IMG/VR virus record: IMGVR_UViG_2695420676_000012
Source of the DNA: a virus
Taxonomy: Duplodnaviria > Heunggongvirae > Uroviricota > Caudoviricetes
Direction: 5' to 3' (one strand)
Length of the DNA: 36,271 nt
In this document: positions 1,614-36,271 of the stretch, piece after piece
How the letters are laid out: every line of letters begins with the position of its first letter
Numbering within the stretch: the first letter of the stretch is position 1
Translations under genes and position numbers: made by a program
The notes under the pieces: generated by a model
The model's input: only the letters and a program-made list of their open reading frames with translations
Database searches by the model: none
Told to the model about the DNA's origin: nothing

Positions 1614-1653
1614 GCCCCTATCGTTATAATACGCGGTAGGGGCGTTTTTGTTT
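1614..1653 (+). terminator. terminator-like hairpin plus T-run
   Basis: 'gcccctA...Taggggc' inverted repeat followed by 'gtttttgttt'; overlaps the TTG-initiated extension of the recombinase ORF. Confidence 0.4.
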
Positions 1654-1662
1654 GGAAATGGT

Positions 1663-3342
1663 ATGAAAACTAAACTGTATTCGTATATTCGCTTCTCGTC
1701 TATGCGTCAGAATGATGGTTCGAGTTATGAACGACAAATCAGGATGGCGAGAGAGGTTGCGGCAAAGTATGACCTTGAACTGGTAAATGATTATCAGGAT
1801 CTGGGTGTATCTGCGTTTAAGGGTGCTAACTCCAAAACAGGGGCGCTATCTCGTTTCCTTGATGCAATAGGTAGATCCGTTCCTGTTGGTAGCTGGCTAT
1901 TCATCGAAAACTTGGACCGTTTATCCCGTGCCGATATTGTCAGTGCGCAGGAGTTATTCCTTTCAATCATCCGTAGGGGGATAACCATTGTTACTGGCAT
2001 GGATAACAAGATCTACTCGCTGGATACTGTTACCGCTAACCCGATGGACCTGATGTTCTCCATCCTTTTATTCATCCGTGGTAATGAGGAAAGCCAGACT
2101 AAGCGCAATCGTACTAACTCAAGCGCACTGATTAAGATTAAAGCCCATCAAGAAAATCCCCAGAATCCGGCAGTGGCAATCGAGGAAGTTGGAAAGAATA
2201 TGTGGTGGACTGATACCACTTCCGGTTATGTGTTGCCTCATCCTACATACTTCCCTGTTGTTCAGGAGATTGTGGAATTACGGAAGAATGGACGTTCAAC
2301 CGCCGAGATACTGGATCACCTTAACGAGACATATACACCGCCACCAGCGGTTAGTAATAAGAAGCATTCAAAATGGTCACGGGCAATGGTTGAAAGGTTG
2401 TTCCATACCCGCGCTTTGATTGGTATCAAGGAGGTCTCTGTCGATGGTGTTAACTATGAGTTAAAGGATTATTACCCTCGTGTTATTGATGATGCTACGT
2501 TCTATCACCTTAAGAAAAATATTGGTGCTAGAGCATGGAACTTTGGAGACAAGGAAGAAGTTAAACCGATCCCCCTGCTTAGTGGTATTGGCCTATTGAA
2601 ATGTGATCATTGCGGTTGCGCTATGGTTAAAGTGAAGGGAACGAACAAACGTTCTGACCAGTATCGTTATACATGTGATGCGACCCGTTCACGTAGACTT
2701 GATTGCGAGCATCCAAACTGGAGTTTTCGAGGTGATCAATTAGAGAAAGCTGTATTGCAATTGCTGGCTGATAAAATCTGGATTGCTGAGGACAAGGCTA
2801 ATCCGGTTCCGGCGTTGAAAGTACAGGTTGATGAAATATCACGCAAGATTGATAACCTGATTGCCCTTTCTGCTATGACAGGAGCAACGAAGGAGTTAGC
2901 CGATCAGATTACTACCCTCAATAGCGAGCGTGAAACACTCTACAATCAGATCAAGATGGCAGAAGAGGAAATGTATTCTGTGGACTCTCAAGGCTGGGAG
3001 AAGCTCGCAGAATTTGATTTAGAAGATGTTTATAACGAGGAACGACTAAAGGTCCGGTTTAAGATTAAGCAAGCTCTAAAGCGGATCGGGTGTAGCAGGA
3101 TTGACAGGAATAAAAACTTGTTTGTACTGGAATACATCGATGGAAAGACCCAGAGAGTTGTAATAGAAAATTCAAGAGGAACGAGGAAAGGACAAATCTT
3201 TGTCGATTTGAAAACTATCAATGATAGGCAGATTCTGGAGAGTAACGGGCTTGTTTTGCATCCATGTTTAGACATGCTGACAGATAAGAACTGGAAACCA
3301 GAAGAGGAAATACCAGGTCCATTACAGGAATTTGGAATTTAA
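1663..3342 (+). CDS. large serine recombinase (integrase/resolvase family)
   Basis: N-terminal resolvase catalytic motifs 'YIRFSSMRQ' and 'GVSAF...LFIENLDRLSR'; downstream Cys cluster 'CDHCGCAM...YRYTCD...LDCEH' (zinc ribbon) and coiled-coil segment; track ORF opens at 1648 with TTG, first ATG at 1663. Confidence 0.8.
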   Translation: MKTKLYSYIRFSSMRQNDGSSYERQIRMAREVAAKYDLELVNDYQDLGVSAFKGANSKTGALSRFLDAIGRSVPVGSWLFIENLDRLSRADIVSAQELFLSIIRRGITIVTGMDNKIYSLDTVTANPMDLMFSILLFIRGNEESQTKRNRTNSSALIKIKAHQENPQNPAVAIEEVGKNMWWTDTTSGYVLPHPTYFPVVQEIVELRKNGRSTAEILDHLNETYTPPPAVSNKKHSKWSRAMVERLFHTRALIGIKEVSVDGVNYELKDYYPRVIDDATFYHLKKNIGARAWNFGDKEEVKPIPLLSGIGLLKCDHCGCAMVKVKGTNKRSDQYRYTCDATRSRRLDCEHPNWSFRGDQLEKAVLQLLADKIWIAEDKANPVPALKVQVDEISRKIDNLIALSAMTGATKELADQITTLNSERETLYNQIKMAEEEMYSVDSQGWEKLAEFDLEDVYNEERLKVRFKIKQALKRIGCSRIDRNKNLFVLEYIDGKTQRVVIENSRGTRKGQIFVDLKTINDRQILESNGLVLHPCLDMLTDKNWKPEEEIPGPLQEFGI

Positions 3343-16980: not shown

Positions 16981-19900
16981 TTACCCTAATTTAGCTTCAA
17001 TTGCAGCAAGACGTTCACGAAGAAGTTTATTTTCTTCGCTCATTTCTTGGACCGCTTTAATTAAAAGCGCGTTCACTGCGGAGTTTGAAATTGTTAAAAT
17101 TTCTTCTGGGTTATCAAGACCACCAATTTTTGCGGTTTTAACAGCTTCCGGTAATACCTCTTGTAAATCCTGTGCGATAATACCAATCTCATGACCTATA
17201 ACTTCTCGGTCATTAAGAGATTTAACTTTATCGTAGGTTTTAACTTTGAGTTTATTTACCTTATCCACCGCATTTTCTTCGTAATCTTCAACATTAATTT
17301 TCAGACGACCATCGGAACGAATATAAACATCGTTAAAGTTACCATTACCAGGAGAATAGAAAGTACCATCATGATGAAATTCAAACACCGCTTGAGGATG
17401 ACCAGCCGCTGGCGATGCCTCCGCAGATCCAACGCGAATAATTGCTTGCCCCCAATTTTGAGGAACACGACGCATACCAAAATCGACGGCAGTTGTATAC
17501 CCTTGATTGGTGATTAAACTTCTTCCTTTAATAATTGGATAATAGCTATCTGGTCCTACATAACCATGATCGACAAATATCGGCGCTTCTAATCCCCATT
17601 GATCGCCCCAACCTCCAGATTGGCTAGCAGTCCAACGTTCACCATGAACATAGAATCGAACGTTATTGACATGAGTCATTTCGACACCTTTTGGACTTAG
17701 CGCGATATCACCCGCGTTTGTAATATTGATAGCAGCATTAGTAGCATAGCTATAGAACGCTAATCCATTATCAGCACCACCTTTACCGATATACCAGTTG
17801 TTATTATCAGCACAAGTACCCAGCAAATATATAGACGAATCACCCGTTTCGGCATTCATGACGATTGCGTCAGAACCACGATTAACTTTAAGTTTCCCGA
17901 AGAAGGTGTTTTTAATGGTATTATCACCCAATCGTTCAAATTCTGCGAAAAATCCTTTTGAGTCACGAAGACTTAAAACGTTATTTCGACCTGTATTGCT
18001 TGCCCCCCAATGGACGAGTTCCATATAGTCCATAGATTGACGAGAACCAGCTTTAAAGAAAAGGTTGTCTTCAAGACGGGTACTACCATCAATTCCGAGA
18101 TGCAAACAACGAGCGGTTGCAGTACCACCTAAATACAATCCACCGTCCGCAAAATCATAGCTGAATGGTCTGCGATTATTCCAACTACCAAAAGAATCTT
18201 TTAAATCGGTAGTAAGAATATGGAAGCTAGAACCATCATTGCGTAAAATCAAACCATAGTTACCACCTTTGACAGCCAAACGAGCATTTTCAGATAATGC
18301 AACTTCGCTATTCATTACAATTTTCTGGCCTTTACCGCCAGTAATATGCAATTCACCATCTTCAATCAGGTTTATAGAGTTTTGACCGTTATCGTTCCAC
18401 CAAATAAAATCTTTGGTTGTTCCATCACCAAAACCAAACCAACCATTACGAACATCTTGTCCAGTGCGATAATCCATGAAATTAAAATGACTTGATTCGT
18501 TTGGTCCTCGACGAATATCAATACCAGAATTTCCAGTAACACCGCCATCCAATGTTAATTTCTTGACATGTAACCCGGATGTTGCTGTCAGCAATAATTC
18601 CTGATTTGTATCTTCGTATCCAGTAGCAAGACGATATGCGTTATCATCAACTGTCTCATGCCAGATAGTGGCAGGAGCAGAACTACGGAAGCGACGCAAC
18701 ATTTTCTTAGCATTTGTTTGCTGTTCGTTCAAATGCTCAATGTCGTATTGGCCTTGATGGTTTCCAGCAAAATTTAACGTTCCACGGTTGCTAAAGTTAT
18801 TGAACGATGAAATGTTAAGAGCATCAAAAATTTCATCTGCAACAGGTTTTTCACCACCCAGATATTCAGGAGTATCCAACAGGTTTAAAGAAACACCACC
18901 GGAAGAAACTTGATATTCTGCTAAAACAAATCCTGTATGTGCACCGTAGTAAGCGTAAAGATCGTAATTGTCGCCATCGGTTGGAATAGCGCAAAAATGT
19001 TGTTCATGATGCCAAATAGTATAATACGCATTGAATACAACACCTTTCGGGCTATTGTTGCCGCATCGAATCACCAATTCGATAATATTGGCTTGTCCAT
19101 TATGTCCTACGTTATAACCGTTACCACCAACCAAACGGATCTTAGCCGTGCGACCGTGTTGTTGTGGCATTGTCAAAGTGCCTAGTTTAAACCAACCACC
19201 CTCGATACCAAAATTAAGCGTCTTCTGGAACAGTCGGTCAATTTCTGCTTTCGAATATGCGCCAATTTCAGCCGGAGTAGGTTTATCACCTTCATGATAC
19301 ATGCGGTGAGAATATGCCAAATGTCCCAATTCATCATAGCCGTATGTTCTTACCGTATGAACCGGATTAGACCCATAAGTGAACTCAAAACCACGAGCAT
19401 GATTAACGCCGGATGGGTGCGGAACATGCAAGATCATTGCAATATGACCCGCCAGGTCATTCATGCGAAATGCACCAAAGTAATCAAGATTAAGAGCACT
19501 CGGATCATCAAAAGGGTTTGCGGTCTTAGACAGCAAATAGCCATCAGTGCAAGTGTTTACGTGCTTTTTGATGTACTTGCCATCACTTGATCCATCGGCT
19601 GCATCAATACGGCTTTCTAAACGTGCAAGTTCGGAATCAGTGTAAGACTTGTTATTGTCAACTTTGCTATGAATTGCTGAATTTTTGGCTTCAACATCAC
19701 GGGTTAATGCTGCGACGTTATCCGCTGCCTCTTGCTTATTGGCTGCAATCACACCAGTAAGGTTATTGTAGGTGTCAGTTAACTGATTTTCCGCATAGGC
19801 GTGATTTGCTGCGATAGTGCGGTCAGTTTCTGCCTTAATCAAATCAACTTTGTCATTGATTGCTTTGTGATTGCTTACGATGGTTGCATCGGTACGGGAT

Positions 19901-20391
19901 TTAATATCATCAACTTTTTTATTGATGCGGGTGTCCAGTTCCTGAGTTGCTACAGCAGCCGCATTTTTATTAGCGTTGATGGTATCCGACAATTCAGCTT
20001 TAACACCAGCAAGATCGGAAGCAGCTTTATTTTTATTGGCCTCGATTGTCGCGTCGGTTTCGCGTTTAATTACATCAACTTTATTGTTAATTTCTGCGTG
20101 ATTTGCTGCGATGGTTGCATCAGTAGTTTGTTTAATTTCATCTACTTTAGCGTGAATATTGCGGCCATTTACTGCAATTGTGCTATCCAATTCTTGTTTG
20201 TTAGCATCAACTTTAGATTCTAGTGCCGCGTGAGTTTCAGGAGAAACAGAGATTTGAACTACTTCATGATCTCGGTCTTTGGTAAAAATAACATGGTCTT
20301 TAAGGTTGATTGCTACCTCACCGACCTGTAATTGTTCCGGCGTTGGCTTTTTGCCAGAAACATTAGTTCGTTTAAATTGGATTGATTGCAT
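16981..20391 (-). CDS. tail fibre with C-terminal intramolecular chaperone (peptidase S74-type) domain, 1136 aa
   Basis: C-terminal 'SDGRLK...GIIAQDLQEVLPEAV...LLRERLAAIEAKLG' matches the autoproteolytic chaperone module of T5 L-shaped fibre / endosialidase-type fibres; N-terminal ~22-aa 'KVD.IK..TDATI.ANH' repeats; SD 'GAGGTGA'. Confidence 0.8.
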   Translation of the reverse strand: MQSIQFKRTNVSGKKPTPEQLQVGEVAINLKDHVIFTKDRDHEVVQISVSPETHAALESKVDANKQELDSTIAVNGRNIHAKVDEIKQTTDATIAANHAEINNKVDVIKRETDATIEANKNKAASDLAGVKAELSDTINANKNAAAVATQELDTRINKKVDDIKSRTDATIVSNHKAINDKVDLIKAETDRTIAANHAYAENQLTDTYNNLTGVIAANKQEAADNVAALTRDVEAKNSAIHSKVDNNKSYTDSELARLESRIDAADGSSDGKYIKKHVNTCTDGYLLSKTANPFDDPSALNLDYFGAFRMNDLAGHIAMILHVPHPSGVNHARGFEFTYGSNPVHTVRTYGYDELGHLAYSHRMYHEGDKPTPAEIGAYSKAEIDRLFQKTLNFGIEGGWFKLGTLTMPQQHGRTAKIRLVGGNGYNVGHNGQANIIELVIRCGNNSPKGVVFNAYYTIWHHEQHFCAIPTDGDNYDLYAYYGAHTGFVLAEYQVSSGGVSLNLLDTPEYLGGEKPVADEIFDALNISSFNNFSNRGTLNFAGNHQGQYDIEHLNEQQTNAKKMLRRFRSSAPATIWHETVDDNAYRLATGYEDTNQELLLTATSGLHVKKLTLDGGVTGNSGIDIRRGPNESSHFNFMDYRTGQDVRNGWFGFGDGTTKDFIWWNDNGQNSINLIEDGELHITGGKGQKIVMNSEVALSENARLAVKGGNYGLILRNDGSSFHILTTDLKDSFGSWNNRRPFSYDFADGGLYLGGTATARCLHLGIDGSTRLEDNLFFKAGSRQSMDYMELVHWGASNTGRNNVLSLRDSKGFFAEFERLGDNTIKNTFFGKLKVNRGSDAIVMNAETGDSSIYLLGTCADNNNWYIGKGGADNGLAFYSYATNAAINITNAGDIALSPKGVEMTHVNNVRFYVHGERWTASQSGGWGDQWGLEAPIFVDHGYVGPDSYYPIIKGRSLITNQGYTTAVDFGMRRVPQNWGQAIIRVGSAEASPAAGHPQAVFEFHHDGTFYSPGNGNFNDVYIRSDGRLKINVEDYEENAVDKVNKLKVKTYDKVKSLNDREVIGHEIGIIAQDLQEVLPEAVKTAKIGGLDNPEEILTISNSAVNALLIKAVQEMSEENKLLRERLAAIEAKLG

Positions 20392-26338: not shown

Positions 26339-28246
26339 TTAGAACGATGTTACCCAGCTACGGCCTCTATTTGGGCGTCTGGCGATGTTTTGACGTTGCG
26401 GTCGTGTGATTGGCTTAGTTTCTTCGATTTGCTCGTCAGATTGCGATTCAGGAGCTTTTACGGGTTCTTCTTTAACGCTGTTTAAGCTGTCTTTCATTGC
26501 AATGAGTTTATCCCATGACATTTTTGAAAGGACGTAGCGAGAAGCAGCATAGCTATAAACCAGACAGTCGAGAGCCTCGTTTCGGGTACTACCTGGATTT
26601 TTCACCCAACGAACACCAGTAGTAGTACGCTTGATGGATTCACTCAAAAGCTGATCGAGATAATCATCAGGAACGGTTTCTGATATTTCTAAGCCAATAT
26701 GAGGATTATCTTTCAGGTTTCTAACCAGCATTTCACGAACAGCGGATTTACCAACGTTAACGCCCAGCATAAGCAATTCATGACCACCTGTGCGGGTAGG
26801 TTTAACCGGAATCACTGGAGCATTACCAGATGAACTACCTTTAATAGCGTGTAGGTTCTTCCACTTACCACAAATACGGTATCCGGCTTGAGTGAATCGA
26901 CCGTTTGATGTATCGAGGAAGCTGGCGAGCATTGGCACACGTTCACCATTAACGTTATAGAATTTGGTTTTCTTGAAGTTAACCAGACGATCCCATACAG
27001 GTGATTCGTATCGTTCACAGTTATGATCGTAAAAGCTACGGTGATCCAGAATGTAAACCTTATCTTTCGCTACACCTAAGATGGTAGATTCTGCGCGATC
27101 CAATTGCTGGTCAATTCCTGAGCACAAGAAAATCACGTCATCAGGGATATTCTCGATAGAAACATCTGTTTTGAGTTGTTCCAGTTCATTTGCTTCTACT
27201 GCCGTGTCCTGATCATCGTATACCTTGCCTAACACGGTGTTATAAAATGATTGTAAATCAAAGGATTGCCACGCATGACTAAAATCAACCACACAAGCGC
27301 GGATCGTGCTGAAAGGTGAATACAGACGGCTAATCCAGAATCCTGCTACTTCACTTTCACGGGTTGCTCTCCACTCGCCTTGCGCTACTGCCCTGATTCG
27401 TTCCCCTTCTGTCCATGCGTTCTTACAGTGGGGGCAAATATAACGAGCGGTATCAGGATCGGGTAAGTTCTTACCATCGATGTTACGCCATTCAAATTGA
27501 ACGTTTTCCCACTCGATCACCTGGTGTTCCCCGCAATGAGGACACGGAACAAAAAACATACGCATATCGCTTGATAACCATTGCTGGTTAATGCTTCCGA
27601 GCTTACTGGTCGGGGTACTGGATACGACTAATCGGCCTTCATCGCCAAAGGTAGTTAAACGGTTAGCAGCCAGTGCCACCGGATCACCTTCTTCTGAGGC
27701 TGTAGCAGCATCGATTTCGTCTAGTAGTCCGACCTTTGCGGTCTTACCACGTAGGGTCGATGGACTGGTTAGCGATACCATGTACAGGAAGTGATTCGTT
27801 TTTAGCTGTAGCTGGTTATTGTTGTTAACCGCATTGCGATCATTCTTGTCTGTAACCACGTCTTTTAATGCATCACATGCTTCGATAGACGGTCGGATCT
27901 TACCAGCGAGATATTGAGACATTTCTTTAGCGGTTGATTGTCCGATAATCATATTGCATGGATCGTTAGCCATCTGGTTAAACAGGATGCCGTTCAAGAT
28001 GGTAGTCTTTCCGATCTGCGCACTGGTCATCAGAACATACTTTTTCTTGTTCTCAAGGAAAGGAGCATCAATCATACCTTTCTGGAATGACAGCAATTTA
28101 ACTTTATCCCCAGCTTGAGGACCATCTACCAGCACCATATTAGCTTCGCACCATTCAGAAGGAAGGAGTTTAGGCGGTGGCGTAATATATTTGGCTGCAT
28201 TTCTGAGAATCTTTTTTAATTTGGCCTTATTAGAAATTAGTTTCAT
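26339..28246 (-). CDS. terminase large subunit, lambda gpA family, 635 aa
   Basis: Walker-A-like 'AQIGKTT'; 'PCPHCGEHQ' and 'YICPHCK' zinc-finger-like motifs; 'GIDQQLDR'; '[14 protein letters not shown]'; order and spacing match gpA as I recall it. Confidence 0.9.
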
Positions 28247-28289
28247 GTAATTACCCTCATTACGAAATATGAAGGTATTTATTAAATTG

Positions 28290-28317
28290 TTGATTTTTTG
28301 ATAAATACGGGTATTAA
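28290..28317 (+). promoter_or_regulatory. sigma70-like promoter candidate for the plus-strand gene at 28334
   Basis: 'TTGATT'-16 nt-'TATTAA' in the divergent region between the terminase and 28334 genes. Confidence 0.3.
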
Positions 28318-28333
28318 GATTTAAGGGGGTTGT

Positions 28334-28936
28334 ATGCTAATTAATCAGCAACAAAGAGATGAATTAGAATTAGCCTTGTCTTGTACCGATCATGAATATC
28401 GTTTGCCAGTAAAACATAAGCACTTAAGGACTGATTACACAACATCCGGTTTTAGCCGTGAGGAAGCGAAAGAGATTTTAATAGAATTTTACCGTGATAA
28501 TGGTTATACAGACGTTCACAACTTCTTTAAGAAGCATAGAACATCACATACAGAGTTTCGGAGAGTCCGAGATTGGTTTGATTTTGATATCAAGCGTTAT
28601 TATCGCATTGATGACGGTCCTATCTATCGGTTGCAGTGGAAGCCGATCCGAGAAGTGTTGAAACAGAAGAGATTGAATCACGCTATTACACGCTATCGTA
28701 ACGAGGCTTTTAAGAAAGGCTATGGTGATACAAGGGAATTGTTTGTAGAACTCGCTAACGTGCGATATAGCCACTATTACAACGATCCTAAGTCCTTCTT
28801 CGAAGTGCTGCGCAAGGTTGATATAAGTCGGGGTACATACTATTCACGGTTGAAGAAGTACGGGATTAAGGCAGAGTTCTTTATGTCGGTTGACGATGGA
28901 GAACTTTTTCCTATAAAATGTAAGTCCTCTAAATAA
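28334..28936 (+). CDS. basic Tyr/Arg-rich protein with C-terminal HTH-like module, 200 aa
   Basis: C-terminus '[25 protein letters not shown]' resembles the two small HTH proteins at 28966 and 32781; SD 'AAGGGGG'. Confidence 0.5.
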
Positions 28937-28965
28937 AGGTGAACATTCACTTTAATTTGGAGAAA

Positions 28966-29196
28966 ATGACTATGACTACTAAAGCTACTCGCGGTCGCCC
29001 TGCCCGTTTTAATCGTGAACAACTGGCAGCGATTGTAAAAGCGTACTATCAAGCACCGAAAGGTAAAGAGAACAAAGAACGGGTATTAAATGAGCATGGC
29101 TTATCTATAGCCCAGCTATACAAATCCCTACATAAAGTTGATTTGAAATTCTTTGTTCAGGTTGACGGTGAAATGGTAGAAGCAACAGGAATTTGA
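28966..29196 (+). CDS. small HTH DNA-binding protein (RP.KF.RE...HTH module), ~76 aa
   Basis: 'GRPARFNREQLAAIVKAYY...HGLSIAQLYKSLHK...VQV'; start at ATG with SD 'GGAGAAA' (track ORF opens with GTG at 28939); paralog of 32781-32960. Confidence 0.5.
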   Translation: MTMTTKATRGRPARFNREQLAAIVKAYYQAPKGKENKERVLNEHGLSIAQLYKSLHKVDLKFFVQVDGEMVEATGI

Positions 29197-29202
29197 TTCT
29201 CT

Positions 29203-29233
29203 AGGCCAATCCTTCGGGGTTGGCCTTTTTTAT
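29203..29233 (+). terminator. Rho-independent terminator
   Basis: 'aggccaa-tccttcgggg-ttggcct' followed by 'tttttat' immediately after the 28966-29196 gene. Confidence 0.6.
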
Positions 29234-29237
29234 ATCC

Positions 29238-29453
29238 GCTCAAAACTGAGCACATCTCTAAGTCATTGATTCTTCCGATGAGTCCAGATTTGGACTGATC
29301 TATAGATGCCCTCAAAACTGAGGAGATGTGCTTAAAGTTCAGCGTATCTATCTAAGTGGTTGATTCTTTCGAGAAATTCAAACTTGAATCAATCGGCGCA
29401 AAACTGCGCTCATCTCTAACCTATTGATTCTTCCGATAAATCCAAATCTGGAT
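29238..29453. repeat. three tandem ~65-85-nt units each carrying two conserved hairpins with compensatory substitutions (candidate structured RNA / protein-binding array)
   Basis: Hairpin 1: GCTCA-AAAC-TGAGC (29238), CCTCA-AAAC-TGAGG (29310), GCGCA-AAAC-TGCGC (29396). Hairpin 2: AGTCCA-GATT-TGGACT (29281), ATTCA-AACT-TGAAT (29376), ATCCA-AATC-TGGAT (29440). Conserved 'ttgattcttccgat' between them. Confidence 0.6.
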
Positions 29454-29465
29454 GCATCAGATACA

Positions 29466-29497
29466 AAAAAGCCCAGCGCAATTATGCGCCGGGCGAT
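29466..29497 (-). terminator. Rho-independent terminator for the minus-strand Rha-like operon
   Basis: Minus transcript 'gcccggcgc-auaau-gcgcugggc' followed by 'uuuuuu', directly after the 29501 stop. Confidence 0.5.
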
Positions 29498-29500
29498 TAA

Positions 29501-30334
29501 TCAGATCCCAAAATCAACAAGGGAAATTACGTTACCTGATTCACGAATCTGTTTAGCAGCTTTGTTTTGAATCAGAATAGTGTTATTTGGCTGCGGCAGT
29601 TTAAGAGTTGCTTTCTGTTCTTCTTCCAAAACGCCCAATTCAACCAGCACCGGAAGAACATCAACAGTAAACTCAAGCTGGTAATGAGCATTCATGCGGC
29701 AGAAAGACAGAGAAGAGTCATTAGCAACATACCCACACGGCTTGTTATTTTCATCATAGACGCGCTCAATGTAGCCAGCAGTACGTAAGGCCGTCAGTGC
29801 TTGTTTAACCTTCGTAGCGCCCTTTTTAGCGCCTAACAGACGTGTCATAGAATGGCTATCTACGGATTTGCGAATGTGTAGCTCAATCAGTTTTTTATTT
29901 TTGCGTTTTTCATCTAATGCCAGTTCGATCCAGTCGGTTTCTTCAAAGTCCGCATACGGGTTAACAGGAGTATTATTGGCGGTTTTCAGTTTCTCTTCCA
30001 GATAATTCCAACGGTCAACCAGTTGGCGAGTAAATTCCGGTACGTTTTGAGCAATCAAGACAATCGAATCTAAGCGACCTTGCTCACCCTCAAACACATA
30101 ATCTTTAACAGTAACAGCAAACCCTAAGTTATTGATTTTTTCGAAATTCTGCGTTGCAGGTTTTCGGATAACTTGGCGTTCAACCAGTCGGTTCATAGAA
30201 GTTTCAAGGTTTGAAAAACGAACTCCAATAAGGTCGGCAATTTCACGAAGAGTCATTTTTGCAACTTCGTTATCAACAACCAGAGACACGGAAGCAGTTT
30301 TAACAGCAGTATTCATAGTAGTAACAGTATTCAT
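29501..30334 (-). CDS. Rha-like phage regulatory protein (antirepressor-like), 277 aa
   Basis: N-terminal 'MTLREIADLIGVRFSNLETSMNRLVERQVI' resembles the Rha N-terminal DNA-binding motif; SD 'AAGGGG'. Confidence 0.45.
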   Translation of the reverse strand: MNTVTTMNTAVKTASVSLVVDNEVAKMTLREIADLIGVRFSNLETSMNRLVERQVIRKPATQNFEKINNLGFAVTVKDYVFEGEQGRLDSIVLIAQNVPEFTRQLVDRWNYLEEKLKTANNTPVNPYADFEETDWIELALDEKRKNKKLIELHIRKSVDSHSMTRLLGAKKGATKVKQALTALRTAGYIERVYDENNKPCGYVANDSSLSFCRMNAHYQLEFTVDVLPVLVELGVLEEEQKATLKLPQPNNTILIQNKAAKQIRESGNVISLVDFGI

Positions 30335-30423
30335 AGTAAAATTCCCCTTAAACGGTTTAGTGATATTGATCCTCCTAGTTCCGGCATCACCACCGGAACA
30401 TTTTTATTTATGATAGAAATTTA

Positions 30424-30756
30424 TTACCAATCGATTTCTACTTGGTCTTCTTCATAATAAGGAATCGCATATTCATAACGCCAATTTTCGATGATTTCAC
30501 GTTCTTCATTAGTAAGAAGGTGATTGTTAACTGGAGTCGCATTGTGATTACCAGCTTCGAATTGCTCGCGAACTTCCAGCATTGCATGAATACCAGTTAA
30601 GGTCATCAGATCAAACGGAACATGCATACTACGGGAGATAGTTTCACGGGATACACCCCAATCATTTTCTACATGGCTAGGGGTTACAGAAACGGTTTTG
30701 CCGGAGATTTTAACAGTCCAGTCATACAGGGATTTAGTGATGGTAAATTCTTTCAT
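30424..30756 (-). CDS. hypothetical protein, 110 aa
   Basis: ORF with SD 'AAGAGGA'. Confidence 0.5.
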   Translation of the reverse strand: MKEFTITKSLYDWTVKISGKTVSVTPSHVENDWGVSRETISRSMHVPFDLMTLTGIHAMLEVREQFEAGNHNATPVNNHLLTNEEREIIENWRYEYAIPYYEEDQVEIDW

Positions 30757-30802
30757 GTTACATCCTCTTTACAAATCTAGGTCAAATAGATTCAAAGTTG
30801 TC

Positions 30803-30830
30803 AAGTGCGATAATCATAAAAAAGTCAGAA
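30803..30830 (-). promoter_or_regulatory. sigma70-like promoter candidate (minus strand) inside an inverted TTGTCAA/TTGACAA pair
   Basis: Minus-strand 'TTGACA'-17 nt-'TATGAT'; plus strand shows 'ttgtcaa-tacccc-ttgacaa' inverted repeat at 30825-30847. Confidence 0.3.
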
Positions 30831-30876
30831 ATTTTTGTCAATACCCCTTGACAAGACGCCAAAGGGTTGACCTAAC

Positions 30877-31335
30877 TTACAGCATATCTAAGCCTTCATC
30901 GTAACCGTAGAAGCCACCGTGAGAAGAGAAACAGATTGGTGTGTAGTCGTCGTCATCTTCGTCTTGTTCATCTTCTTCTGGGGCTTCCTGAGCGGTTTCT
31001 TTACCATAATCAGCCATAATCTGGTCAAGATCGGCGATCCCATAGTAAGAGCCTAAATCAACGTCATATTCACGAACATCAAAAGGCAGGTCATCACGAA
31101 CAATAATTGCTGGAATATCGTTGTATTGAAGACGACCCTCATCAGTAAAACAGTCGATGATCACAGTAGGACGACCATTTCGTTTTAAAGCGTAGAAAGC
31201 AGTTGAGTAGTTGGAGTCTTCGGAATGACGAATGATGTTATAACCACGATGAGCGAAAACTTCTAGCATATGGAAGTTACCATAGTTTTCAGAGTCCAGA
31301 CCCAGAAGTACGAAAGGAGTTTTAGTATTGATCAT
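30877..31335 (-). CDS. hypothetical protein with strongly acidic C-terminal tract, ~152 aa
   Basis: Start placed at ATG with SD 'AGAGGA' (track ORF extends to 31365); C-terminal 'EEDEQDEDDDDY'. Confidence 0.5.
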   Translation of the reverse strand: MINTKTPFVLLGLDSENYGNFHMLEVFAHRGYNIIRHSEDSNYSTAFYALKRNGRPTVIIDCFTDEGRLQYNDIPAIIVRDDLPFDVREYDVDLGSYYGIADLDQIMADYGKETAQEAPEEDEQDEDDDDYTPICFSSHGGFYGYDEGLDML

Positions 31336-31355
31336 AGTGGTATCCTCTAAAAGAA

Positions 31356-31386
31356 AGTGAATCAAGTAAGTTCACTATTATTTATA
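31356..31386 (-). promoter_or_regulatory. TATAAATA box followed by GTGAA/TTCAC hairpin upstream of the 30877-31335 gene
   Basis: Minus-strand 'TTATAAATAatAGTGAActtacttgaTTCACT...AGAGGA...ATG'; same architecture as 4414-4456 and 32508-32537. Confidence 0.4.
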
Positions 31387-31588
31387 AAGAGAAAATTCTT
31401 GTTATTATGAAAGGTGATTGTATTCAGTCGGGCAAAGCCCTCCTTCATGATTTGATTAAATTATGATCAAAACGAAGAAGTATCTTTAGAATATAATAAT
31501 CTTTCTTTTGGAGAAATAATAATCAGGAAGTAATTTAGCAACCGAAGGTTGCAATCCCGAAGGGATACCAATACCTTTCATGATCATT

Positions 31589-31846
31589 AAAGTGATCTAG
31601 AATCATCTAGTAACCAGTTAACTACTATTATCTTCAAAGTGATTATTACTATCTTTCTAGAATCAGTTAGTAACTAGTATTAAATCCCTTTCGAGAAAAT
31701 CCTTTCAGAAGTGATTCTCGATGCCACGCAGTGGCGTCGCAGACGTTTGAGAGTGAGCGAAGCGAGCGAGCAAACTAGTTAATTCCTTCTAAGACCATCT
31801 AGTATCATCTAGTTTAAATTAGTTGTTACTAGAAGTAATTGGTTAG
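31589..31846. repeat. CTAG-rich imperfect direct/palindromic repeats in an ORF-free region
   Basis: 'aaagtgat' x3 (31589, 31636, 31708); 'tctagaatca(t/g)(c/t)tagtaac(c/t)agt' x2 plus variant 'tctaagaccatctagtatcatctag'; palindromes 'agttaact', 'actagt'. Confidence 0.45.
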
Positions 31847-32017
31847 CGCTTCGCGCAGTCGGGCTACGCCCTCCTAATTATCTTTTTGGTTATTTGTTGT
31901 TTTTAGTTTTACACATGAGCGTAGCGAATGTGTTATATAATATCTATGCACGCCCGATCCCCCGCTTTTACCCCTCGCTAAGTTAATGTTTTATAAAGAG
32001 TTTTTATCACCAATCCT

Positions 32018-32216
32018 TTTCAGGGGCAAAAATGAGGGGCAAAAATTAGATTTTCAGGGGCAATTATTGGCATTTCAGGGGCAAAAATGAGGGGCAAAAT
32101 CACTGTTTCCCAGAATTTCAGGGGCAAAAATAGTAGGTTTCAGGGGCAAAAATGGGATAGTAGAATCTTGGGGATTTTATTCGGGGGCAAAAATTCAGAA
32201 TTTCAGGGGCAATTCC
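32018..32216. repeat. direct-repeat (iteron-like) array: 9 copies of (T)TCAGGGGCAA(A)AAT core
   Basis: 'GGGGCAA' at 32023, 32036, 32057, 32078, 32091, 32121, 32143, 32184, 32206; exact 27-nt duplicate 'tttcaggggcaaaaatgaggggcaaaa' at 32018 and 32073; spacings 13/21/21/13/30/22/41/22 nt. Confidence 0.8.
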
Positions 32217-32408
32217 CATCAAATATTTTGATAGAAAATTCTTGTATATTATTTAATCAAAAAATCACCAAAAAGTGGCGTAAGTTAATGATTTAAAAAG
32301 AATTGTCAAAAGGTCTCCGTGCTATAATAGGTTATAAAGGTTGATAATCCTGATCTACAATTTTCAAACAAAAATTTTGATAGTCATTTCTCGCTTAGGT
32401 CAAGTGCA

Positions 32409-32437
32409 TTGACAACTGTCAAGGATTATTTTATACT
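32409..32437 (+). promoter_or_regulatory. consensus sigma70 promoter with palindromic -35 (TTGACA-AC-TGTCAA)
   Basis: 'TTGACA' (32409-32414), 17-nt spacer, 'TATACT' (32432-32437); -35 lies in a perfect inverted repeat. Confidence 0.55.
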
Positions 32438-32507
32438 TTTTCTCACTGGTGGGGGTTGAAATTTTCTAAACAGTCCCCATATAGATGATAAGCAAGAATT
32501 TCCACGT

Positions 32508-32537
32508 TATAAATACATGTGTGAAATGATTGTTCAC
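32508..32537 (+). promoter_or_regulatory. TATAAATA box followed by GTGAA/TTCAC hairpin
   Basis: 'TATAAATA' 32508-32515, hairpin 'gtgaa-atgattg-ttcac' 32521-32537. Confidence 0.4.
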
Positions 32538-32574
32538 TTCTGAAAATCTCCTGATTCACTGCTAATTCATACAT

Positions 32575-32600
32575 CACTGGTTAGATATACAGTGCTTTTT
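32575..32600 (+). terminator. terminator-like hairpin plus T-run in the leader region
   Basis: 'cactg-gttagatata-cagtg' followed by 'cttttt'. Confidence 0.4.
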
Positions 32601-32658
32601 CGGTTGAATATTGTACGAATTGATTAATAATTAATCTTCTCTTTAGCAATTCGTGCTC

Positions 32659-32686
32659 CCACTGATCGGATATACAGTGGTTTTAC
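32659..32686 (+). terminator. terminator-like hairpin plus T-run
   Basis: 'ccactg-atcggatata-cagtgg' followed by 'tttta...gggttttc'. Confidence 0.4.
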
Positions 32687-32707
32687 AGGGTTTTCTGACA
32701 ATCATTT

Positions 32708-32747
32708 TATAAATACAAGTGTTCAGAGCGAAATGCTCTTTTTTTAA
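32708..32747 (+). promoter_or_regulatory. TATAAATA box followed by hairpin plus T7 run (attenuator-like) before the 32781 gene
   Basis: 'TATAAATA' 32708-32715; 'agagc-gaaat-gctct' 32725-32739; 'ttttttt' 32740-32746. Confidence 0.4.
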
Positions 32748-32780
32748 GAAATTATTAATCCACATGTGAGGAATCGACTG

Positions 32781-32960
32781 ATGGCTAGACCTGTTAAGTT
32801 CACTCGTGAAATGATTGTTGATATTGCTAAACGCTTTTACAGCGACACTGAGCGAGGCGGGGAAAACTTCTTTAAGAAGGAAGGAATTGATAGAAGCGGA
32901 TTCTACAAGCTAATGAAGAAATACGAAATTCAGGTAAAGATTAACGTTCAAGTTTGTTAA
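32781..32960 (+). CDS. small HTH DNA-binding protein, paralog of 28966-29196 (~59 aa)
   Basis: 'ARPVKFTREMIVDIAKRFY...GIDRSGFYKLMKKYEIQVKINVQV'; start at ATG with SD 'GAGGA' (track ORF opens with GTG at 32766). Confidence 0.5.
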   Translation: MARPVKFTREMIVDIAKRFYSDTERGGENFFKKEGIDRSGFYKLMKKYEIQVKINVQVC

Positions 32961-33074
32961 TCCACTTTCACTGAGAATTATATGATGGCTTTAAAAAAGA
33001 AAAAGCCTCCCTTGTTGCAGCAAAGGAGGCTTGAAATGAACAATTAAAACTAACTTTCCACAGGAGTATTTATA

Positions 33075-34037
33075 ATGTTATTTTCCGCTAACTTTTTCAC
33101 TAACGAAGTAACCAACGCTAAAGCAGTTATCAAATTTGGCACCGAAGCAAACAAGAAGATTCAGCCGAAAGTTGTTGCTCATGTTTCCTTTGCGCAGCAG
33201 AAATCCGCTTTCGCTGGCTTTAAAGCACATCGTGAAGCACTGATCGCGGCTGGCTTTGGTGTTGACGGTAAACTGCCTAACGGCATTCGTAAAGCAATCG
33301 ACCGCGTTAAACCTGCTAAAGACGTTGCAGTAGACCACATCGTTACTTTCACCGTTAAGAACTCTTCTGAACTGTTCCACCTAGTGATTGCTGGTGATAC
33401 TGCTATCGTTTCCGCTCCTAACATGGATTTTCAGGATACCGCTGATTGCAACATTACCTTTGGTCGTCGTAAAGAAGTTACCGGAAAAGCTAAACTGAAC
33501 TTCACCAAATCCGGCAATCCTTACTTTGCTGTATTCTTTAACAGCCACGCTACTGAGAAAGAAGTAGTAGAACTGGTTGCATATGAAGGTGAAGAAAAAG
33601 CACGTATTGAATCTTGCGACGCTTTCGTAGAACTGGAAGCACAGGTTAATGCTGTTTCTCCGGTTGCTGTTGAAGATCGTTTCTCTGCACTGGAAGCACA
33701 GATCGCAGAACTGAAAGCTGCACTGAAAGAAAAAGACCAGATCATCGAAGCACAGAAAGCTGAGATTGAAGAACTGAAAGCTAAAGAAGTTGCTCCGGTT
33801 GCTGTTGAAGCAGATCAGGAAGTTGAATCTAAAGACTTCTTTACTCAAGCGGTTGAATCTAAAGACAAACAAGCTCTTTGGATTCTGCTTAACGAAAAGC
33901 GTACTGTTGCAGACGTTGCAGAATGGAACAAATACCTGATTAAGAAAAATGGTTCTTCCGTTCAATTCATCGATTTAATGACAGTTAAAGTTTTTGATGC
34001 GTTCGAAAATGTGTTCGACGTTCGCAAAGCAGCTTAA
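33075..34037 (+). CDS. hypothetical abundant protein with coiled-coil and internal 'SPVAVE/APVAVE' repeat, 320 aa
   Basis: Strong high-expression codon bias (ctg, cgt, gct, gaa, aaa); SD 'GGAG'; downstream of the consensus promoter. Confidence 0.6.
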   Translation: MLFSANFFTNEVTNAKAVIKFGTEANKKIQPKVVAHVSFAQQKSAFAGFKAHREALIAAGFGVDGKLPNGIRKAIDRVKPAKDVAVDHIVTFTVKNSSELFHLVIAGDTAIVSAPNMDFQDTADCNITFGRRKEVTGKAKLNFTKSGNPYFAVFFNSHATEKEVVELVAYEGEEKARIESCDAFVELEAQVNAVSPVAVEDRFSALEAQIAELKAALKEKDQIIEAQKAEIEELKAKEVAPVAVEADQEVESKDFFTQAVESKDKQALWILLNEKRTVADVAEWNKYLIKKNGSSVQFIDLMTVKVFDAFENVFDVRKAA

Positions 34038-34063
34038 TTTTTAATTTAATTGGAGACCCTACT

Positions 34064-34405
34064 ATGGCAACTTTAAACGAAAAAGCACTGTCCCGTAAAA
34101 CTCTGAAAGAGAAAAACATGATTCTTTCTGAAACGCTAAAACAGACTAATGCTGAGTGTGAATTTTTGACCATTAAACTTTCGATTAAAGAGAAAGAATG
34201 CAATGAGCTAATGGAAAAGTACAAATCCTTACATGATAATTACGTGAAACTTGGTGAAGGATTTAAAGCCATGCAAGAAGACTACAAGAAATCATTGAGG
34301 GAACAGATTAAACTACTTGAAGAATTGAAAGGGTATAGAGAAAAGTCCGTTAAAGAAAAGAAAATACAGAAGATGAAAAACAAAGGATTGCGTCTTGTTG
34401 CTTAA
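34064..34405 (+). CDS. Lys/Glu-rich coiled-coil protein, 113 aa
   Basis: ORF with SD 'GGAGA'; heptad-like charged sequence. Confidence 0.55.
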   Translation: MATLNEKALSRKTLKEKNMILSETLKQTNAECEFLTIKLSIKEKECNELMEKYKSLHDNYVKLGEGFKAMQEDYKKSLREQIKLLEELKGYREKSVKEKKIQKMKNKGLRLVA

Positions 34406-34410
34406 GACAA

Positions 34411-34437
34411 TAAAAAAAGGGACTCCGAAGAGTCCCT
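34411..34437. terminator. hairpin with A-run/T-run flanks (bidirectional terminator candidate)
   Basis: 'gggactc-cgaag-agtccc' preceded by 'aaaaaaa' (T-run on the minus strand). Confidence 0.4.
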
Positions 34438-34502
34438 AGTAAGTTTAGGTTAGGTTTGCACAACAAAGATGAGGTTATAATGAACATAATGCTACATTAT
34501 TC

Positions 34503-34541
34503 TTTAAAGCCAGAAAAATAACCGCCCCGAAGGGCGGGAGG
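34503..34541 (-). terminator. Rho-independent terminator for minus-strand transcripts from the terS-like block
   Basis: Minus transcript 'cccgccc-UUCG-gggcgg' followed by 'uuauuuuucu'. Confidence 0.5.
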
Positions 34542-34695
34542 ATTAACACTCAATCTATACTTGTTATGTTTTTATGTTGTATAGATCACTGACTATGAAA
34601 ACACTGTACTGGAGTGTGTTTTATGGCTTTTAATCGGGAATCCTCAAAGAAGATCCCCTGTTAATAACCATAAGGAGAAAAGGCAGATTACACTA

Positions 34696-34869
34696 TTATT
34701 TAGTATCCTTTTTACAGCAACTAAAAAGAATAAACAAAAAGAAGCATACCCAGCCGTAAGGCGTACCGATTAGAAATTTGAAAAACACCACCAGCGATAT
34801 AAAAATCAATTTAATGCCAGCGACGATAGTCAAAAACAGCAGAGTAGCAAAGTAGACAAAAAGATCCAT
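34696..34869 (-). CDS. small hydrophobic membrane protein (57 aa), not in the ORF track
   Basis: Manual translation 'MDLFVYFATLLFLTIVAGIKLIFISLVVFFKFLIGTPYGWVCFFLFILFSCCKKDTK'; SD 'AGAGGA' 7 nt before ATG. Confidence 0.4.
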   Translation of the reverse strand: MDLFVYFATLLFLTIVAGIKLIFISLVVFFKFLIGTPYGWVCFFLFILFSCCKKDTK

Positions 34870-34922
34870 AGATAATCCTCTTTGAAAACGACCATCATCT
34901 ATAGTTCAATTCATCGATTTAA

Positions 34923-35024
34923 TTAATGATACTTGAAAGCGTTACACACAGCAGAAATGCCAATATGTGCCAGTGAAAATACGATAGTTAGCCCTACAGC
35001 CAGATAAATTAAAAATTCAACCAT
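34923..35024 (-). CDS. small hydrophobic peptide (33 aa), not in the ORF track
   Basis: Manual translation 'MVEFLIYLAVGLTIVFSLAHIGISAVCNAFKYH'; SD 'GAGGA' before ATG. Confidence 0.3.
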   Translation of the reverse strand: MVEFLIYLAVGLTIVFSLAHIGISAVCNAFKYH

Positions 35025-35121
35025 AGGTAAATCCTCAAATAAGAAAAAGGTTAGCGGGGGGTGATTCCCCCGTAGACGTTGACCATCAACATCTTTCACA
35101 TATGTATTTAGTATCTAATTT

Positions 35122-35673
35122 TTAAGACACATCAAATTCATCGTCTTCTTCTGGTTCTTGTTCCGGTTCATCGATTAATGGTAATTCTTCTTCCTCGTCA
35201 TCGCCTAAATCCGCATTTTCGAACAAGTCCCCTACTTCATTTAAACGACGCTCGATGATCTCCCTTAGCTTATTCTTCAATGTTTTCTGATCAGTGGCAG
35301 ATTCGAGAATTTCTAAAGCGTCGATTGTGGCGATCTGCAAAATAGTCTGTTTCACCTTTCCGCAATATTCCGCTAGCTCCTGCTCAACATACCCGACCGG
35401 AATCAGGAGATTCATTGCTTCCTGGTTCTCTCGTTCGATAGCGTCAGCCTCGCCTCGCGCCTTGCGTAGTTTCTCTTGTTGGATTTGGGCTTGTACATCC
35501 ACTTCCCGCAAAGGATTGATTATGTTGGTGAGTATCCACTTAATGGCTAGATCGCGAGGACAACGGCGGGTATTAGAATTGAATGGCAAACCGCGTTCTT
35601 TCCATTTAGTGACAGCCGGAAGTGAATAACCATACATTTTCGATAATTCTGTTAGTGTAATTTCTGCGGACAC
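35122..35673 (-). CDS. Nu1-like small terminase subunit candidate (winged-HTH N-terminus, acidic C-terminus), 183 aa
   Basis: N-terminal 'LTELSKMYGYSLPAVTKWKERGLPF...LAIKWIL' resembles my recollection of lambda Nu1 'KKQLADIFGASIRTIQNWQEQGMPV...VIKWY'; size matches Nu1 (~181 aa); GTG start with SD 'GGAGGA'. Confidence 0.45.
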   Translation of the reverse strand: MSAEITLTELSKMYGYSLPAVTKWKERGLPFNSNTRRCPRDLAIKWILTNIINPLREVDVQAQIQQEKLRKARGEADAIERENQEAMNLLIPVGYVEQELAEYCGKVKQTILQIATIDALEILESATDQKTLKNKLREIIERRLNEVGDLFENADLGDDEEEELPLIDEPEQEPEEDDEFDVS

Positions 35674-35698
35674 TTTTTAATCCTCCATATTAGAAAAT

Positions 35699-35729
35699 TT
35701 GCGTAATGGTATTTAGATGAATTACGCAA
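35699..35729. promoter_or_regulatory. perfect 9-bp inverted repeat with 13-bp spacer (operator or packaging-site candidate)
   Basis: 'TTGCGTAAT-ggtatttagatga-ATTACGCAA' 26-56 nt upstream of the terS-like start. Confidence 0.35.
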
Positions 35730-35905
35730 TAAAACGCGCTGTAATGAGATGAGAGAGATCGGCGTGTGATAAGGCGTTGAAGGGTGTTTTAGCTCGTTGT
35801 GGAGTGTGCTGGAGGGCTTAACTAAACCGTTTTGAAAAATGCTCACGCACATCAAAAACCGGGGTGCCGAAAACTCGCTTTATTTCACTCGTGGAACAGT
35901 ACCTT

Positions 35906-35934
35906 TTGATTTTGTCAAGTCTTTTTTATAAATA
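35906..35934 (+). promoter_or_regulatory. sigma70-like promoter candidate with TATAAATA -10 region
   Basis: 'TTGATT' (35906-35911), 15-16 nt spacer, 'TATAAATA' (35927-35934); ATG at 35966. Confidence 0.4.
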
Positions 35935-35965: not shown

Positions 35966-36271
35966 ATGAAGACTAAAGATATTAAGATTGACTTTGAAAC
36001 TGTTGATGACGTTCGGGAACATCGCATTGATTCTACTGGCTGCATCTTCCAGCTTACTAACTCCCCTATTGGATTGATTATCTATGTAGCAGAAGATGAC
36101 GTGTACGCTATATGGGATGGACAGGATGAGTTTAAAGGCGGGAATAGCCATCTGATCAATACTCATGAGGGATTTGATCCGACTCCTGTCTGTATGCTTG
36201 CTTATCACGTAACACTGGATGAACTACCGGAAGCAAGCGCGCGTATCCGTAGAATGAAAGACATTAAGTGA
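35966..36271 (+). CDS. hypothetical protein, 101 aa
   Basis: ORF with SD 'GAGGG'; stop TGA at the window end. Confidence 0.55.
   Translation: MKTKDIKIDFETVDDVREHRIDSTGCIFQLTNSPIGLIIYVAEDDVYAIWDGQDEFKGGNSHLINTHEGFDPTPVCMLAYHVTLDELPEASARIRRMKDIK

Follow-up and report, generated by a model that had tools for sequence, protein, structure and literature searches.

The stretch of DNA analysed here is the IMG/VR virus record IMGVR_UViG_2695420676_000012, whose whole length of 36,271 nucleotides (nt) is referred to below as the window. It is a complete temperate phage of about 36 kb and 41% G+C, integrated in Escherichia coli and encoding a large serine integrase. Along its strand, one edge of the prophage is formed by terS, the gene of a probable small terminase subunit (TerS), and the other by the integrase. 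On the minus strand, an unbroken late array of about 25 kb comprises the gene of the large terminase subunit (TerL), followed by the portal, a protease-capsid fusion, tail genes and an endolysin. Both terminase genes lie on this strand, separated by a block of 6,875 bp (28247-35121), and this separation is the subject of the present analysis. The block holds two plus-strand gene groups, a minus-strand group of three genes, terminators, a 1.4-kb region free of open reading frames (ORFs) and several repeat families. An earlier examination of the letters alone, here called the sequence-only reading, had reported these contents together with the coordinates, the strands and the gap of about 6.9 kb; a recheck reproduced the positions exactly and found all of the contents, as well as two minus-strand ORFs that the earlier list had missed (cargo slot, Table 1).

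Table 1. Features of the terminase region and the integrase of the window, in order of position (a dot marks features to which no strand is assigned).
Feature	Position	Strand	Evidence or remark
Large serine recombinase (integrase)	1648-3342	+	phrog_95 1.1e-63; in a relative, 'recombinase family protein' beside split hicB
TerL, gpA type, 635 aa; first gene of late array	26339-28246	-	PF05876 1.9e-56, PF20454 2.6e-44, phrog_15 6e-138
Intergenic 87 bp, divergent, TerL / 200-aa gene	28247-28333	.	presumed late-array control region
200-aa protein, two tandem copies of a ~55-aa domain	28334-28936	+	BLASTP; candidate DNA-binding regulator
85-aa protein, paralogue of 64-aa protein	28939-29196	+	BLASTP 3e-7; two allele groups in relatives
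Convergent terminator zone	29203-29494	.	hairpins 29203-29226 (+) and 29471-29494 (-), three repeats between
Rha/Ant-type regulator, 277 aa	29501-30334	-	phrog_63 2.3e-15
110-aa protein	30424-30756	-	in about half of relatives
162-aa protein, acidic C-terminus	30877-31365	-	homologue in nearly all E. coli relatives spanning the position
ORF-free region, 1.4 kb	31366-32765	.	longest ORF 69 aa, inside repeat array
75-nt non-coding segment common to Krischvirus (RB49-like) phages	31451-31525	+	84% identity, 54 phage records
Iteron array, nine direct GGGGCAAWW repeats	32018-32215	+	probable replication origin
64-aa protein, paralogue of 85-aa protein and of the repeated domain of the 200-aa protein	32766-32960	+	BLASTP
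320-aa protein, candidate iteron-binding initiator	33075-34037	+	N-terminal ~190 residues, then central coiled coil
113-aa coiled-coil protein	34064-34405	+	swapped along with C-terminal part of 320-aa gene
Conserved non-coding segment, alternative cos candidate	34408-34704	.	minus-strand hairpins 34418-34437, 34522-34537; end of TerS unit
Cargo slot, two small hydrophobic-protein ORFs	34696-35099	-	57 aa, 34696-34869; 58 aa, 34923-35099
TerS, Nu1-like, 183 aa (probable)	35122-35673	-	phrog_57, family profile vs PDB, Foldseek, hhalign
TerS leader/upstream, candidate operator and cosB-like site	35674-35850	-	
Element conserved across TerS alleles, candidate cosN and/or promoter	35851-35925	.	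CTTGACA...GGTACTGT...GTTTTCGGCACCCCGGTTTT
101-aa ORF, divergent from terS, last gene before prophage-host junction	35966-36271	+	

The 183-aa protein encoded next to the prophage edge is very probably the small terminase TerS, as profile and structure comparisons indicate. The family phrog_57, labelled 'terminase small subunit', matches residues 2-165 at 1.1e-14 (PHROGs have no curated cut-off), and hhalign pairs the protein with gp1 of Pseudomonas phage Persinger (97.2%, E 3.4e-11, 144 of 173 columns) and with lambda Nu1 (96.6%, E 5.6e-10). The homology therefore reaches past the DNA-binding domain, both in the residues covered by phrog_57 and in the columns shared with gp1. When a profile of 14 family members is searched against PDB, the top three entries are the small-terminase chains 6hn7_B (1.9e-4), 1j9i (7e-4), which is the Nu1 DNA-binding domain, and 7lw0. 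A Foldseek search of PDB with the AlphaFold model of the protein returns the same three on top, with probabilities of 0.98, 0.99 and 0.90, respectively. This model, with a predicted local distance difference test (pLDDT) value of 74, has a winged helix-turn-helix at its N-terminus, together with three long helices and an acidic, disordered tail. A single-sequence PDB search gave only spurious epimerase matches, a Foldseek search of viral predicted structures was uninformative past the N-terminal domain, and no further TerS-like ORF turned up among those of the window that were scanned. The Pfam family PF07471 alone gives a weak result for the window protein; a precomputed PF07471 match is carried by a family member, P0066. 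The Prokaryotic Genome Annotation Pipeline (PGAP) names the terS product 'hypothetical' in the genomes inspected, and most copies in protein collections have no other name. The Nu1-like assignment of the sequence-only reading is thus upheld by homology to two recognised small terminases.

TerL is of the gpA type, as had been proposed, and carries both the GpA ATPase domain (PF05876, 191.9 bits) and the GpA nuclease domain (PF20454, 152 bits), each far over its cut-off. Among relatives of the phage, two TerL alleles occur that are only 59% identical, while their first 14 and last approximately 37 residues are the same (the other allele is found, for example, at 17233-19137 of locus L047). A TerS of 100% identity is paired with either allele. 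In lambda, the N- and C-terminal regions of TerL contact Nu1 and the prohead. The 87-bp intergenic segment upstream of TerL aligns in 34/34 relatives at 95-97% identity, including those whose TerL body is at 59%, and at 76% in Salmonella.

The separation of the two genes is conserved. The window was aligned to 45 related loci from IMG/VR and from assemblies, in which genes were located by tblastn, and all 45 show the same gene order, with terS and TerL 5.7-8.5 kb apart; the start-to-start distance is 6.3-9.1 kb over about 45 loci. Within the block, assembly GCA_001284985.1 is 100% identical to the window. The order is identical in relatives from Salmonella and Providencia, where the Providencia element also abuts a truncated PHP-domain gene. 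The 200-aa, 85-aa, 162-aa and 64-aa proteins and the Rha-type regulator are kept across the relatives of three genera, and none of the relatives encodes TerS elsewhere. The terS/TerL split is a fixed architecture of this lineage and departs from the norm for gpA-type terminases. The sequence-only reading had offered either accessory DNA inserted into a packaging operon or an unusual genome organisation. The first does not hold, as every relative examined, whether from E. coli, Salmonella or Providencia, carries the block with its order unchanged; the second does, as a gene of TerS size (about 175-180 aa) is directly upstream of TerL in lambda and in phages PT1, Alexa and Persinger and never so here.

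By TerL, the closest cultured relatives are Pseudomonas phage Persinger, Salmonella phage PT1 (Jilinvirus) and Acinetobacter phage Alexa, at about 30% identity; the Persinger protein is the second-closest in the phage collection, and the closest outside the suspect DCP80 record described below. All three resemble the window in the order of head genes after TerL, and the homology between Persinger gp1, annotated as TerS, and the 183-aa protein covers almost the entire length. They differ in that the lysis genes are followed by a gene of about 175-180 aa overlapping the TerL start, which is annotated as TerS in Persinger (as is the lambda gene), as 'DNA packaging protein' in Alexa and as hypothetical in PT1. 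Phage lambda shares with the window a gpA-type TerL with both Pfam domains and a TerS of the same size, with a winged helix-turn-helix, a helical middle and an acidic tail. In lambda, however, Nu1 and A overlap and are co-transcribed, whereas here 6.9 kb of mixed-strand early genes and terminators intervene. Non-adjacent terminase genes are known from other phages: in P2 and 186, the terS gene M and the terL gene P belong to divergent operons, and in T7, genes 18 and 19 are separated by small genes. The principle is therefore not surprising, although those separations are short and lie within the late or structural region, while the present one spans a whole early region and concerns the Nu1/gpA type. 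What appears new is two terminase genes held apart by an entire early region in a widespread lineage without a cultured member; the parts themselves, a Nu1-like TerS, a gpA TerL and a serine-integrase temperate phage, are of known kinds. Literature searches returned no account of this prophage family nor of a split Nu1/gpA pair.

A further, more distant case is the record 'Escherichia phage DCP80' (PQ671644), which contains the sole detectable TerS homologue in the phage database (33% identity) and the best TerL match (43%). Its TerS gene is likewise not beside TerL; it lies after the endolysin, at the distal end of the late array. The first approximately 26 kb of this record (L001 1-26300) form a siphophage-like late region with a gpA TerL, a tail tip protein, an endolysin and the TerS-like gene. 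In this 141-kb 'Gaprivervirus' record, the T4-like early genes motA, ndd and rIIA come directly after the siphophage-like part, and the record is probably a chimeric assembly.

The block between the terminase genes looks like the early region of the phage. This reading is drawn from the Rha-type regulator, the paralogous small proteins, the co-variation of iterons with a neighbouring protein, and the flanking A+T-rich stretch and promoter-like sites. Homologues of the 277-aa regulator in relatives have PF09669 (Phage_pRha) on record and are named 'Rha family transcriptional regulator' by PGAP. The 200-aa protein is present in all relatives at 88-98% amino acid identity and has no Pfam, PHROG or NCBIfam match. 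Two BLASTP matches, at 3e-6 and 7e-4, connect it to the 64-aa protein. A domain of about 55 aa (F-[ST]-R-E ... F-Y ... F-F-K-K ... Y ... K-K-Y) is seen four times in the block, two copies lying in the 200-aa protein and one in each of the 85-aa and 64-aa proteins, and it has no Pfam or PHROG match.

The ORF-free region contains a probable iteron-type replication origin. Its nine GGGGCAAWW copies span 32023-32214, spaced at 13 or 21-22 bp with gaps of 30 and 41 bp; the whole window has 11 copies against 1.2 expected, a number reached in 0/100 shuffles. An A+T-rich stretch lies beside the iterons (G+C 0.345 over 32001-33000). The array co-varies with the protein encoded next to it. In type A, its presence or absence matches that of the N-terminal domain (about 190 residues) of the 320-aa protein at 27/27 loci. 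In type B, an alternative array of AAACCTAC (AAACCTACAC) repeats occupies the same place and matches a different protein of 339 aa and similar build at 19/19 loci. Some of these loci are two views of one contig, which lowers the independent count; there are zero exceptions. Direct repeats, an adjacent A+T-rich stretch and a co-varying neighbour protein together suggest that the array is an iteron-type origin and the 320-aa protein its initiator. Searches of Pfam, PHROG, NCBIfam and PADLOC gave no match for this protein, its family is tiny (12 clusters among 1.84 billion representatives in an exhaustive search), and Pfam scans of distant members gave coiled-coil noise only. No other replication gene is recognisable in the phage.

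Expression of the two terminase genes from one transcript is difficult to envisage. At least four minus-strand terminator-like hairpins lie between them (34537-34522, 34437-34418, 33032-33003 and 29494-29471), and any transcript that reached TerL from terS would run antisense to five genes in two gene groups. TerS is therefore most likely made from a transcription unit of its own, consisting of terS and the cargo slot, and would join TerL in trans.

The DNA upstream of terS resembles the lambda cos region in its organisation. A perfect 9-bp palindrome, TTGCGTAAT-N13-ATTACGCAA, lies at 35699-35729, 26-56 bp upstream of the terS start; its arms flank TAAATA, and it is kept in E. coli, Salmonella and Providencia. 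Over 35451-35850, which covers TerS codons 1-74 and 177 bp upstream, identity to relatives drops to 54-71%, compared with 85-95% in the flanks. The upstream stretch occurs in four types that track four types of the TerS DNA-binding domain. Beyond it lies the element conserved across TerS alleles. Its G+C-rich core (35860-35869) is 187 bp away from the start of terS; in lambda, 190 bp separate the left (cos) end of the record from the Nu1 start, which is a resemblance only. The overall layout upstream of terS recurs in three genera. A conserved cosN-like element, a variable cosB-like stretch and terS, in this order, fit the lambda-like layout. The packaging specificity that distinguishes lambda from phage 21 resides in cosB and the N-terminus of Nu1/gp1. 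As in that pair, the TerS DNA-binding domain and the upstream DNA vary as a unit here, while the rest of TerS and the nearby element are conserved; unlike there, the pattern may reflect nothing more than linkage. A repeat search upstream of terS found no clear set of R-site-like repeats.

The same genes and the same split could be combined with a cos site elsewhere, so that TerS would be encoded away from its site; three places come into question: the non-coding segment 34408-34704, a G+C-rich stretch at about 31940-31985 beside the iterons, and the 87 bp upstream of TerL. The first aligns in about 85% of relatives at 89-98% identity while both of its flanks are variable and replaced, and part of it (34388-34546) is 73% conserved in Salmonella; its conservation is, however, largely explained by its two terminator-like hairpins. 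The second is found only in relatives of that iteron type. The third is conserved in all relatives regardless of the TerL allele, as described above. No positive evidence fixes cos upstream of terS, but the stretch there co-varies with the TerS DNA-binding domain and none of the three other places does, so that a location at one of them is considered rather unlikely.

It is much less probable that the 183-aa protein is instead a winged-helix regulator, or a recombination directionality factor near the attachment site, with the true TerS unrecognised or absent. The gene does lie only 0.4-0.6 kb from the prophage-host junction, its N-terminal fold is common to excisionases and MerR/BldC-type regulators (ranked lower among the fold matches), the Nu1 model of Pfam stays below its threshold, and PGAP mostly leaves the product as hypothetical. 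Against this, the homology to bona fide TerS proteins far exceeds the DNA-binding domain, the size, coiled-coil middle and acidic tail match Nu1, and the ORFs scanned offer no alternative partner for the gpA-type TerL.

An insertion into a once contiguous Nu1-A operon is highly improbable. The closest cultured phages have the TerS and TerL genes side by side, the block is partly mosaic and differs between relatives, and a true cargo slot directly downstream of terS holds hydrophobic ORFs, AbiTii or mcr-1 depending on the relative. Yet no relative lacks the block or has adjacent genes, in three genera and down to 63% TerS identity, and the DCP80 element, though distant, also has the two genes apart. 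Where the block varies, one allele replaces another rather than being present or absent, and the only candidates for regulatory and replication functions in the phage sit in this block. Hardly more credible is a rearrangement in decaying, non-functional prophages that would be irrelevant to working packaging: the lineage is without a known isolated phage and some copies contain insertion sequence (IS) elements, but the late and packaging ORFs of the window are all intact, the same order occurs at two integration sites and in three genera, and whole modules have often been exchanged as alleles, which suggests a phage population that is actively recombining.

The explanation that best accounts for these observations combines the TerS identity, the fixed split, an early region between the two genes and a cos-like layout upstream of terS, and is given a probability of roughly 0.7. 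In this model, the late strand of the excised circle would read terS, cargo slot, terminators, early region, TerL, heads, tails, lysis, integrase module and attP. The early region would supply a candidate iteron origin with the 320-aa protein, the Rha-type regulator and three paralogous small DNA-binding-like proteins. The cos site would lie within about 290 bp upstream of terS in a lambda-like arrangement, where the conserved G+C-rich core may act as a cosN-like site cut by TerL, and the allele-specific stretch between the core and terS as a cosB-like site bound by the allele-specific winged-helix domain of TerS. The conserved C-terminal two-thirds of TerS may contact the conserved N-terminus of TerL. 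Packaging would begin at cos and run through terS and the early region.

Several points weigh against this model. For TerS, the PF07471 match (E 0.01, 15.9 bits, residues 8-75 only) falls below the cut-off of 30, and the structural matches of the model are confined to the N-terminal domain. The position of cos upstream of terS is deduced from the layout of the sequence. Its G+C-rich core is not a clear palindrome, the conserved element is not detected in Salmonella by blastn, its general form only recurring there, and the co-variation of the TerS domain with the upstream DNA could come from linkage within one recombination segment rather than from binding. No promoter was identified for the TerL array. 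The 320-aa protein is without detectable relation to known initiators, its AlphaFold model (pLDDT 38) is unusable, and the iterons could instead function as operators or in partition. Finally, the phage collection searched contains no isolated phage of the lineage, with the exception of the first 26 kb of the DCP80 record.

Beyond the model itself, it is tempting to regard the split as a working design of a widespread lineage of temperate Enterobacterales phages, although this extension is tentative and rated at somewhat less than even odds. Under it, cos and an exchangeable cassette of the cosB-like stretch and the TerS domain would sit at the prophage edge under their own palindrome-controlled promoter, allowing packaging specificity to be regulated as well as swapped independently of the TerL motor. 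The two 59%-identical TerL alleles would then serve the same TerS through their conserved termini.

The remaining parts of the block differ in how well they are kept. Nearly every E. coli relative retains the 87-bp intergenic segment and the non-coding segment 34408-34704, the genes of the 200-aa, 85-aa and 64-aa proteins, the 162-aa gene together with about 250 bp of upstream DNA, and the beginning of the Rha-type gene; the other parts are exchanged for alternative alleles. The convergent terminator zone aligns in merely 18-37% of relatives. Between the convergent 85-aa and Rha-type genes, it contains three repeat units of about 44-61 nt at 29231-29460, each with small palindromes of the GCTCAAAACTGAGC type and the TCCAGATTTGGA type. 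The count of terminator-like hairpins is 12, about twice the 5.8 +/- 2.9 of shuffled sequence. A promoter-like TTGACA-17-TATGAT is found at 30841-30813, downstream of the 162-aa gene, and a strong promoter-like site at 32409-32437 (+) in the ORF-free region. The latter also holds short G+C-rich hairpins, four TCTAGAATCATCTAGTA repeats at 31596-31814, and a pair of CACTG-N10-CAGTG palindromes at 32575-32594 and 32660-32679, in addition to the iterons and the A+T-rich stretch. Scans for tRNAs and Rfam families over the window and the block, at gathering and E<=1 thresholds, gave no match, and sliding-window folding of the ORF-free region reached z-scores of only -2 to -3.3 at 31350-31650. These results make no case for a structured RNA.

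The ORF-free region also includes the 75-nt segment shared with Krischvirus phages. Its counterpart there is unannotated intergenic DNA, and the window segment is kept in about 94% of prophage relatives. The segment is also found at L057 1501-1575, with a second copy about 150 nt downstream, and one RB49 spacer contains two copies of the core motif GATTAAATTATGATCAAAACGAAGA. In Salmonella, the segment is seemingly inverted relative to its flanks. A 29-nt inverted repeat (31404-31432 / 31556-31584, 76% complementary) brackets it in the window, with a plus-strand folding z-score of about -3. Hyperplastic regions of RB49 are known to contain mobile promoter/stem-loop cassettes, or PeSLs (PMC2839356). 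The 75-nt segment could be such a cassette.

Two other observations concern T4-like phages. The T4 late-promoter consensus TATAAATA was considered as a promoter class of the window and set aside: its seven copies are a small excess over the 2.8 expected, and 2/100 shuffles reach 7. They lie at 943, 4449(-), 31379(-), 32508, 32708, 33067(-) and 35927, five of them preceding a same-strand ORF by at most about 60 nt, and may be sigma-70 -10-like boxes in A+T-rich spacers. A 1,136-aa protein of the late array (16981-20391) matches T4-type families of the long tail fibre distal subunit (phrog_1699, 1.4e-126), which provides a second link to T4-like phages in this E. coli element of 41% G+C.

The cargo slot of about 0.4 kb is the sole part of the block that behaves as accessory DNA. 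In the window it encodes the 57-aa and 58-aa proteins, whose hydrophobic character was judged by eye from the translations; strain L3Cip3 has a 94-aa ORF there. In a relative from Providencia sp. JUb39, the slot contains an AbiTii-domain gene (L063 10652-11554), which suggests that it collects defence or cargo genes, while PADLOC gave no credible defence match for the small cargo genes. In strain HeN100 (NZ_CP044443, L064 9951-13552), ISApl1-mcr-1.1-pap2, conferring colistin resistance, is located between terS and the 320-aa-type gene, and two ISKpn26 copies are present elsewhere in that prophage block.

The placement of the family in E. coli was obtained through TerS. Exact-match look-ups found the gene on E. 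coli chromosomal contigs adjoining ghrA and a truncated PHP-domain gene, ycdX; a scan of genome contigs with TerL gave no match. By megablast, 64/5,426 complete E. coli genomes carry the family, and it is also found in Salmonella and Providencia, with a TerS identity of 63-65%. The two halves of hicB flank a closely related element of about 38.8 kb in the complete genome NZ_CP062211. Integration sites of the family comprise ycdX in E. coli, a PHP-domain homologue in Providencia, a position next to ghrA in Salmonella, and hicB, the host gene being split. On the excised circle, the integrase, the three small plus-strand ORFs and the 101-aa ORF would share one strand across attP. Lysis genes seemingly placed directly upstream of terS in the Providencia relative were rejected as part of the element; a truncated PHP-domain (ycdX-like) host gene intervenes, so that the cassette belongs to something else. 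In the L3Cip3 prophage, an IS3-family element interrupts the long tail-fibre gene (L055 24376-25604), and this copy is probably defective.

The current understanding of terminases is not overturned by this lineage, which indicates that a Nu1/gpA terminase can work from unlinked genes. For annotation, the consequences are direct: the TerS of a family present in about 1.2% of complete E. coli genomes is mostly labelled 'hypothetical', and tools that expect terS beside terL would miss it. The natural swaps of the TerS DNA-binding domain together with its upstream DNA, and of the TerL alleles, offer material for studies of packaging specificity and of contacts between the subunits. The lineage also contains a candidate origin-initiator pair that had previously gone unrecognised. 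As one strain carries mcr-1 within such a prophage, the cos site and the packaging mode bear on whether the lineage can move resistance genes.

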